A program made the translations under genes and the position numbers. Shown here piece by piece: positions 37,704 through 37,975 of a DNA stretch of 38,307 nt; positions within the stretch are counted from its first letter, which is position 1; the number at the start of each line of letters is the position of its first letter. The stretch comes from a virus (lineage: Duplodnaviria > Heunggongvirae > Uroviricota > Caudoviricetes), in the IMG/VR virus record IMGVR_UViG_2859827302_000002. The stretch is one strand, 5' to 3'. Under the pieces are notes generated by a model. That model was not told the DNA's origin, did no database searches, and saw only the letters and a list, made by a program, of their open reading frames with translations.

Positions 37704-37762
37704 TGGGGCATGCATGGGGCAAAAATATTTGTTGTGGGGCATTTTGGGGCATGATTGGGACA
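37704..37762. repeat. four direct TGGGGCA repeats (plus degenerate TGGGACA) at about 10-bp phasing near the prophage end
   Basis: Copies at 37704, 37715, 37735, 37745; possible arm-type integrase binding sites of attR. Confidence 0.4.
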
Positions 37763-37879
37763 CTTTGTTACATATGAACTTTGCCGATTTTTATATGACA
37801 TGGAAATACAACGCTTTGATTCTTCTAAATAAAAAACATGCTCTTGGGCGTTCTTTAGTGATTTTTAAAAATTCCGTAT

Positions 37880-37975
37880 CACGCAGTTAAAGTGGCGGGC
37901 ATACTCTTCAAGGCTGGTGATCCCCAACCGCACCCATTTAGGATGCGACCATTGCGGTAGACCGATGTAAATCAT
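37880..37975 (-). pseudogene. yecE: 5' fragment of host gene yecE truncated at the prophage junction (attR about 37865..37885)
   Basis: Minus-strand ATG 37975 encodes [32 protein letters not shown], matching the YecE N-terminus as I recall it, then diverges to IRNF*; start overlaps the upstream gene stop (ATGA). Confidence 0.55.

Follow-up and report, generated by a model that had tools for sequence, protein, structure and literature searches.

Phased TGGGRCA heptamers as probable integrase arm-type sites in the attR of a lambda-like prophage in yecE

Where does the prophage end and the host gene begin, and which protein do the phased TGGGGCA repeats beside that border serve? Both questions are raised by the right end (positions 37704-37975) of a 38,307-nucleotide stretch of tailed-phage DNA, IMG/VR record IMGVR_UViG_2859827302_000002 (hereafter the window, i.e., the whole stretch that was analysed). 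The window is the right half of a lambda-like prophage in the Escherichia coli gene yecE and terminates at attR, its right attachment (att) site. yecE is a recurrent insertion site for Shiga-toxin (Stx) phages and other lambda-like prophages, well documented for Stx as well as non-Stx phages (PMC8112680). We consider it probable that the locus is a lambda-type attR of a yecE prophage, in which heptamers of the form TGGGRCA are the arm-type sites of the integrase. The junction, the target gene and the 11-bp core were already known (phiP27 record, PMC8112680); for the arm motif, no published description was found in the literature covered.

A preliminary description of this DNA had let the minus-strand open reading frame (ORF) from 37975 match the YecE N-terminus for 32 codons before diverging, and had placed the junction near 37865..37885. 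Both statements hold. The ORF (37865..37975) encodes 36 amino acids (aa), of which the first 32 equal K-12 YecE and the last four differ; that is, it extends four codons into phage DNA, with its stop at 37865-37867. The alignment to an uninterrupted yecD-yecE locus that the description had suggested (L001, from a K-12 derivative) is identical rightwards from 37880 and unrelated leftwards, such that yecE does not continue to the left and the core can be defined. Codon 32 ends with base 37880, which puts the junction at 37879/37880. Intact-yecE genomes give the same border: all of them among the matches listed for the query 37300-38307 match only from its base 581, i.e., window position 37880. 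Left of 37880 there is phage DNA (DinI gene, tail fibre genes).

Since the integrase gene int and attL lie outside the window, two proxies were used for the left end: the O104:H4 prophage (NZ_CP027394), whose right end matches the final 1 kb of the window at 99.1% identity, and phage PhiR49_2, whose phage-side arm of the att site (P arm) is 99.2% identical and whose integrase (Int) is 99.5% identical to that of O104:H4. These proxies with 99% identical attR or P arm encode an Int that is 95% identical to phiP27 Int. In O104:H4, excisionase, integrase, the remainder of yecE and then yecN and cmoA are found about 48 kb from attR; the yecE 5' fragment is annotated there as an incomplete hypothetical protein. 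The three sites compare as follows.

attL (L003, O104:H4; window orientation): ...GTTGCCCTC CACGCAGTTAA CATGACGGG...
attB (L001, K-12; window orientation): ...GTTGCCCTC CACGCAGTTAA AGTGGCGGG...
attR (window): ...TTCCGTAT CACGCAGTTAA AGTGGCGGG...

This comparison yields the common core and leaves yecE in two parts:

37880-37890: common core CACGCAGTTAA, 11 bp, the only stretch identical in attL, attB and attR
37880..37975, minus strand: host yecE codons 1-32, from the ORF and the alignment to intact yecE; cut off from the rest of the gene by the prophage

On this evidence, strand exchange between attP and attB is placed within the 11-bp core, i.e., within yecE codons 29-32. The GenBank record of phiP27 (AJ298298) annotates these exact 11 bp as attL and attR, and the free phage CharmingMan carries the un-recombined attP in the order DinI gene, repeats, core, int and xis (the excisionase gene). 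Judged by these alignments, a tyrosine integrase inserted a lambda-like prophage in yecE codon 32, and 37704-37975 spans its attR junction, made up of phage P arm, core and host B'.

Some observations concern the other half of the gene. In the O104:H4 attL (L003 20119-20889), RefSeq lists a 256-aa yecE' ORF with an ATT start inside the phage P' arm that overlaps the int stop, and the phage sequence past the core imitates yecE (phage ..TRHVNCVEGN.. vs host ..ARHFNCVEGN..). An older paper, as far as it is cited in PMC4632033, states that a phage at yecE leaves the function of the gene unchanged. Furthermore, one IMG/VR contig (2850796239_000011, L077 2812-2850; Int 95% identical) has an attL with ...CATTAACAGTTAACATGACGGG in place of ...CCACGCAGTTAACATGACGGG, which may reflect integration at a secondary site or else an insertion in tandem or nested form.

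The repeats themselves had been described as four TGGGGCA copies at about 10-bp phasing and about 120 bp inside the prophage. Four exact copies do exist, all on the plus strand and starting at 37704, 37715, 37735 and 37745. The uniform 10-bp spacing gives way to 11, 20 and 10 bp, with the helical phase kept, and the distance is too short, since the four copies lie 129-176 bp from the junction. The set also changes: a fifth, invariant heptamer was missed (TGGGACA, 37756-37762; 117 bp separate its end from the core), and conservation does not extend to the copy at 37735. Given the resulting start-to-start spacings of 11, 20, 10 and 11 bp, all five heptamers lie on one helix face.

37704..37721, plus strand: arm-site pair 1 TGGGGCAtgcaTGGGGCA, its two heptamers 11 bp apart in the distal P arm; predicted to be arm-type sites of the integrase, invariant in 7/7 P arms
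37735..37741, plus strand: additional TGGGGCA, preceding pair 2 by 10 bp and in phase with it
37745..37762, plus strand: arm-site pair 2 TGGGGCAtgatTGGGACA, its end 117 bp away from the core; likewise predicted to be arm-type sites of the integrase, invariant in 7/7 P arms

TGGGGCA is not enriched over the whole window (9 found vs 9.0 expected); it is the clustering that stands out. As a null model, we used 2000 first-order Markov simulations. Within 60 bp on the same strand, they reach at most 2 TGGGGCA copies (observed: 4) and at most 3 TGGGRCA copies (observed: 5). The pair pattern TGGGRCA-N4-TGGGRCA is found twice in 38 kb, both times in the P arm, vs 0.10 expected.

Conservation was assessed in an alignment of seven P arms (window, PhiR49_2, P-EibC, phiP27, CharmingMan and the fossil copies in phi80 and mEp237). 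At a mean column identity of 73%, both heptamer pairs are invariant at every motif position. The 37735 copy is present in the window, PhiR49_2 and P-EibC, degenerate in phiP27 (CGGGACG) and CharmingMan (TAGGACG) and deleted in phi80 and mEp237; its presence is lineage-specific, and it may serve as a weak or optional arm site beyond the two pairs. Stx1_499 and Stx2a_1447 have a single pair about 113 bp from the core, the equivalent of pair 2. The functional unit thus appears, from these patterns, to be the tandem pair TGGGRCA-N4-TGGGRCA, with two pairs as the conserved P-arm set.

Which domain could read such sites was studied with the Int of the O104:H4 prophage (attR 99.1% identical), as int lies outside the window. 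Pfam predicts Arm-DNA-bind_2 at residues 7-70 (83.6 bits; cut-off 22) and Phage_integrase at 201-394, i.e., the proxy Int has a separate N-terminal domain predicted to bind arm DNA. By sequence, this integrase is a member of the group of phiP27, Rac IntR and Stx-phage integrases. Across seven integrases, the arm domain is conserved best: 69% of the columns are invariant in it, 36% in the core-binding region, 51% in the catalytic domain and 14% in the C-terminal tail.

The left prophage end had been named as the place where the same core and repeat motif should be sought. Both are found there in the O104:H4 attL, our proxy, and the motif recurs in related att sites as well. The O104:H4 P' pair TGGGGCATCATTGGGACA (L003 20091-20074) has the same orientation as the P-arm pairs and begins 64 bp from the core, inside the last int codons; 18 bp separate the int stop codon from the core. 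Likewise, the 268-bp attP of CharmingMan (L009) holds pairs at 2501-2518 and 2542-2559, the core at 2676-2686 and the P' pair at 2751-2768. A repeated motif distinct from the core is therefore present on both the P and the P' arm, as is characteristic of a lambda-type att site.

TGGGRCA-N4-TGGGRCA occurs exactly once and at a fixed position in 80/80 IMG/VR int loci. These loci are 90-100% identical copies, most of them ending at the int stop, and served for counting the P' pair rather than as a measure of diversity. The diversity comes from phage records: a single P' pair is also found in phiP27, FSL SP-016, Stx1_499, Stx2a_1447 and TL-2011c, whose Ints are 64-95% identical to the proxy Int. 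The pair pattern is absent from the control loci L001, L099 and L100, including 30 kb of unrelated K-12 DNA.

Since the P' pair overlaps int, we compared nine int 3' ends column by column. Within the pair, 12/14 motif columns are invariant, the exceptions being the two R positions; beside it, invariant columns number 3/38 and 9/40 in the flanks and 0/4 in the 4-bp spacer. Within Int, conservation is lowest in the very tail whose codons contain the pair (the 14% given above; 31-36% identity in distant relatives). The residue over the motif's TG varies between M, L and V, with the codons ATG, CTG and GTG, and leaves the motif bases unchanged. Because the motif columns are invariant while the Int tail is variable, because the M/L/V codons keep TG, and because the corresponding pair of the Rac prophage is non-coding, the constraint on the P' pair, as read from these alignments, is on the DNA and not on the protein.

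Rac offers a comparison with a different target. Its Int is 42% identical and has Arm-DNA-bind_2 as well as a catalytic domain, accompanied by a DUF1233 excisionase. The target is ttcA, and comparing the two prophage ends gives an unrelated 26-bp core, TTGTTCAGGTTGTATTGTTCTTTCTT. Both arms of Rac nevertheless show (T/A)GGGGCA repeats at similar core distances. Instead of two pairs, its P arm has three sites (TGGGGCA, AGGGGCA, AGGGGCA, spaced about 20 and 11 bp), with 107 bp between the end of the run and the core; on the P' arm, TGGGGCA and GGGGGCA begin at a distance of 47 bp from it. This P' pair, TGGGGCAaatTGGGGGCA, lies 3' of the int stop codon in both the Rac-type phage 666R9 and K-12 Rac and is thus non-coding, in contrast to that of the yecE prophage. 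The Rac layout (107 bp, 47 bp) resembles that of the window (117 bp, 64 bp) despite the other core and target.

Relative to Rac, identity is 50% for the arm domain, 43% for the rest of Int and 29% for the excisionase (tail not aligned). The motif follows the arm domain and not the core or target: it is shared with Rac (ttcA, other core) as well as with Stx2a_1447 (different core). The TGGGRCA heptamers are accordingly most likely, as a prediction, the arm-type sites bound by the integrase N-domain. The tentative arm-site reading of the preliminary description thereby gains support from both arms, from the relatives, from Rac and from Arm-DNA-bind_2.

As an aside on Rac, we take both K-12 derivative records that were used to carry a large inversion, roughly symmetric about 1.94 Mb, when set against the MG1655 map. 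In these records (NZ_CP032667.1, NZ_CP043183.1; L099, L100, L101), the yfc/yfd genes lie near 1.4 Mb and Rac near 2.45 Mb.

The strongest competitor for the same sites is the excisionase, which could polymerise on the phased repeats and bend the P arm in excision. Phased direct repeats in the P arm are the binding mode of lambda-type excisionases, and the heptamers fit it. A DUF1233 excisionase is present in all relatives examined (immediately upstream of int in O104:H4, CharmingMan, phiP27, Stx1_499, FSL SP-016 and Rac), so that conservation of the motif alone does not separate excisionase from integrase. What separates them is, on the one hand, position: the motif is on both arms, with the P' arm carrying it in every relative examined, whereas excisionases of the lambda type have sites in the P arm only. 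On the other hand, the motif is unchanged relative to Rac although the excisionases are only 29% identical, compared to 50% for the integrase N-domains, and other phage-specific repeats between the heptamers and the core (see below) suit an excisionase better. There is also an experiment on Rac: purified XisR shifts fragment AttR but not fragment AttM (Liu et al. 2015, PMC4632033). We mapped the probe primers of that study onto the K-12 sequence (AttR, L101 10930-11223; AttM, L101 11054-11344). AttM holds all three Rac repeats (11161-11197) and the whole P arm, ending 1 bp before the core, while AttR includes the core. The Rac excisionase thus fails to bind the heptamer repeats, which we count as supporting evidence only, since it is a single gel shift with a distant homologue. 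For Rac, then, excisionase binding to attR is established by experiment (PMC4632033), while its integrase arm sites are a sequence prediction. Taken together, we regard excisionase sites as an unlikely explanation of the heptamers.

Two further explanations start from what surrounds the repeats in the window, i.e., a divergent dinI-like gene and a small ORF:

37369-37617, minus strand: DinI-like gene (Pfam DinI)
37682-37677 (-35) and 37659-37654 (-10), minus strand: predicted dinI promoter
37633-37648 and 37661-37676: two LexA-box-like palindromes, CTGTGTTTGTATACAG and CTGTATGGATAAACAG, overlapping the dinI promoter
37714-37890, plus strand: 58-aa ORF, annotated as hypothetical protein L58 in phiP27

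The heptamers could be upstream regulatory elements of the dinI-like gene (an activator site or promoter element) that lie near the att site by coincidence. They begin 22 bp upstream of the predicted -35 hexamer of a promoter that the two LexA-box-like palindromes overlap. But phiP27, which lacks the dinI cassette and the LexA boxes here, keeps both pairs, so the repeats are independent of dinI; the same pair recurs beyond the core, inside int; and the motif flanks the Rac att site with no dinI annotated beside either Rac arm. We hold such a regulatory role to be very improbable. Hardly any weight is left for the idea that the repeats are coding sequence of the 58-aa ORF or a chance low-complexity cluster. 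The ORF does span the region and has an annotated counterpart in phiP27 (L58), but it is without a Pfam match and crosses the recombination core, which means that it would differ between the phage and prophage states. Moreover, the indels of aligned relatives have lengths not divisible by three (10 bp deleted in phi80 and mEp237, a gap of 1 bp in CharmingMan), yet the heptamers are invariant, and chance is ruled out by the simulations together with the recurrence in Rac.

Several points weigh against integrase arm sites as well. The arm-binding function comes with Arm-DNA-bind_2 as a Pfam annotation name, and a sequence search of solved structures with the N-terminal 144 Int residues gave nothing meaningful. 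In the literature covered, which excludes subscription journals, no report of integrase-DNA binding and no description of arm-type sites was found for the Stx/yecE/Rac integrase group. int, xis and attL are outside the window, such that the left-end evidence comes from proxies; the last 5.3 kb of the window are without an end-to-end match among the complete E. coli genomes searched, which is the second reason for using O104:H4 and PhiR49_2. As the P' pair overlaps coding sequence here, excluding a protein-level cause rests on the codon patterns and on Rac. Finally, the number of P-arm sites varies: FSL SP-016 and Stx1_499 have one exact pair each, Stx2a_1447 has a pair with one mismatch, Rac has three sites vs five in the window, and one of the four TGGGGCA copies (37735) is unconserved.

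How does the proposed layout relate to known systems? In lambda, attP and attR carry the arm-type sites P1, P2 and P'1-P'3. Several properties are shared with lambda: an integrase that binds two kinds of sites and has a separate N-terminal arm-binding domain (predicted here), and a short repeated motif unrelated to the core on both arms with neighbours about 10-11 bp apart. A consensus match for integration host factor (IHF) between arms and core may be a further parallel. The att site is asymmetric in both, with a long P arm (here to about -176) and a short P' arm (here to about +82); the CharmingMan attP also resembles lambda attP in size and asymmetry. The order attL-int-xis, with attR past the tail fibre genes, is the same, too. 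In contrast, the motif is TGGGRCA here and of the CAGTCACTAT type in lambda, and the N-domain is Arm-DNA-bind_2 rather than Arm-DNA-bind_1; lambda Int is detectably similar in the catalytic domain only (E about 0.003-0.008). Here, furthermore, all sites point in the same direction, the P' pair lies within the int reading frame and the target is a protein-coding gene. Tandem-pair arm sites on both arms are known from the attP of mycobacteriophage L5, whose integrase lineage, motif and host are unrelated.

Among the known relatives is phiP27 (AJ298298), an Stx2e phage in yecE. Its 11-bp core is the same, its arms carry the P' pair as well as both P-arm pairs, and its Int matches the proxy Int at 95% identity. 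It differs in that there is no dinI cassette at the P arm and the middle copy reads CGGGACG; its record marks the arm region as the hypothetical ORF L58 and not as binding sites.

The region is also found inside other phages. Nakamura et al. (2021, PMC8112680) described 'attB-in-PP_1' in ompW prophages, a 21-bp attB with flank traced to yecE, and report that this fossil core in phi80-like prophages captures Stx2a phages. phi80 (JX871397), mEp237 and the ompW prophages share with the window the DinI gene, the heptamer pairs, the conserved block, the core and the yecE 5' fragment, at 68-76% identity. The fossil, located at L004 2501-2766 in phi80 and at L008 in mEp237, includes a yecE N-terminal pseudogene, and in the seven-P-arm alignment the fossil copies keep the full P arm with both heptamer pairs and a conserved 32-bp block. 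In contrast to the window, which is a live chromosomal junction, the phi80 and mEp237 copies are a fossil attR inside another phage and a secondary target for yecE-type phages. It seems that the phi80-like fossil is attR-like and not attB-like, apparently unremarked before. That phi80 Int shares these arm sites was considered and rejected: about 1.1 kb separate the fossil from the attP core that belongs to phi80 itself, whose Int has a different arm domain (Arm-DNA-bind_3).

Between pair 2 and the core, three more elements of the P arm were found:

37771..37797: imperfect palindrome CATATGAA-N12-TTATATG; the repeat CTTTGCCGATTTTTA (direct repeat D5) overlaps it and occurs again at 37853-37867
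37809..37821, minus strand: IHF-consensus match AATCAAAGCGTTG (consensus WATCAANNNNTTR), the sole zero-mismatch match in 37690-37900
37839..37870: 32-bp block TGCTCTTGGGCGTTCTTTAGTGATTTTTAAAA, ending 9 bp from the core

The palindrome arms covary, reading CATACGAA..CGTATG in phiP27 and CATATGAA..TTCATATG in CharmingMan. Relatives with a more divergent Xis have other tandem repeats at its place (GAAATTCGTCGAAGTTCATCGA in Stx1_499, GAAGTTCGTTAAAGTTCGTTAA in FSL SP-016), and a third similar copy lies inside the 32-bp block, e.g., TTCGTCGA / TTCATCGA / TTCGTCGA in Stx1_499 and CTTTGCCGATTTTTA / CTTTAGTGATTTTTA in the window. Repeats that are more alike within a phage than between phages would fit excisionase sites, and the palindrome is a candidate site for excisionase or another bending protein; we infer both from the repeat patterns. 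The IHF-like site, a consensus match, is a candidate for bending the DNA that separates the core from the arm sites. Its TTGAT core is only partly conserved in the relatives, and a one-mismatch match, read by eye, lies between the core and the P' pair (L003 20124-20136; TGA invariant). In the 32-bp block, 30/32 columns are invariant in the seven sequences (mean column identity 73%); Stx1_499 and Stx2a_1447 have it in the recognisable form CTCCTGGACGATCTTCGTCGATTTTTAAAAA, and FSL SP-016 has a close variant. The block may be a core-proximal integrase site, an accessory-protein site or an excisionase site.

Read as integrase arm-type sites, the heptamers suggest the following scheme. An integrase with two DNA-binding parts would bind and cut the core with its C-terminal part, and bind the arms with its N-terminal domain. 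The TGGGRCA tandem pairs, 11 bp apart on one helix face, would be the arm-type sites for that domain: in the P arm two pairs and one lineage-specific copy, 117-176 bp from the core, and in the P' arm one pair about 64 bp from the core, which in this lineage lies inside the last int codons. By analogy with lambda, arm-held integrase would reach the core over DNA bent by IHF and, during excision, also by excisionase, and the assembly of arms and core would build the recombination complex and set the direction of the reaction. We infer the N-domain binding of the motif, the roles of the sites in integration vs excision, and those of the IHF-like site, the palindrome and the 32-bp block.

We lean slightly towards a wider claim, namely that all integrases of the Arm-DNA-bind_2 clade, among them those of Rac (IntR), phiP27 and many Stx and non-Stx lambda-like phages, use TGGGRCA tandem pairs as a common arm-site code, as far as the sequences compared here suggest. 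If so, one conserved module of N-domain and arm sites would have been combined with many core specificities (yecE, ttcA). The P' pair would have moved into the int frame in the yecE/Stx branch, leaving the C-terminal '[V/A]P-x-x-P[H/Q]' peptide as a by-product of a DNA site, and 'attB-in-PP_1' in phi80-like prophages would be a complete fossil attR with arm sites instead of a bare attB. The defined arm motif and att layout would make the prophage ends of this integrase group, including Rac and many Stx phages, delimitable from sequence alone and would allow the design of minimal attP substrates for integration vectors. Defined arm sites would also help to explain the capture of Stx phages by fossil att sites in other prophages. 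Concerning mechanism there is nothing new, i.e., the lambda paradigm would operate with a different motif and arm-domain family.

The right end of the window (37300-38307 as query) is carried by 282/5426 complete E. coli genomes (about 5%). From left to right, the window comprises an insertion sequence (IS) transposase fragment, a DNA methylase, three tRNA genes, an SASA-type esterase, ORFs of structural-gene size, tail fibre genes, the DinI-like gene and attR. In addition to the features given above, these are:

1-654: IS transposase ORF (rve integrase core domain); the window begins inside this ORF
1081-2130: phage DNA methylase gene, directly downstream of the IS transposase ORF
2180-2429: tRNA genes Met-CAT, Arg-TCG and Arg-TCT
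2897-4894: region with an 89-aa ORF (2897-3166) followed by an SASA-type esterase with a DUF6645 domain
34316-35881: 521-aa tail fibre ORF with a long collagen-like Gly-X-Y repeat region
35922-36479: Gp38-like adhesin ORF, after the 521-aa tail fibre ORF
36967-37233, minus strand: 88-aa cysteine-rich ORF, no Pfam match at E <= 0.001
37972-38307, minus strand: 3' part of host yecD (hydrolase); its stop codon overlaps the yecE start codon, and the gene exits the window end

As the IS transposase ORF at the window start lies just upstream of the methylase gene, the left side of the prophage may be interrupted or rearranged. The locus after the tRNA genes is the usual position of stxAB in Stx phages. 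The 89-aa ORF at 2897-3166 was therefore considered as an stxB remnant and dropped; we take it not to be StxB, and no stx gene to be present.

The DinI-like gene resembles an SOS-inducible cargo set directly against the P arm, a cassette that phiP27 is without; in the phi80 record, a predicted LexA site is annotated at the place equivalent to the palindromes. At the position of the 88-aa cysteine-rich ORF, O104:H4 has a split YkgJ-family cysteine cluster protein, annotated as one coding sequence and a frameshifted partial pseudogene.

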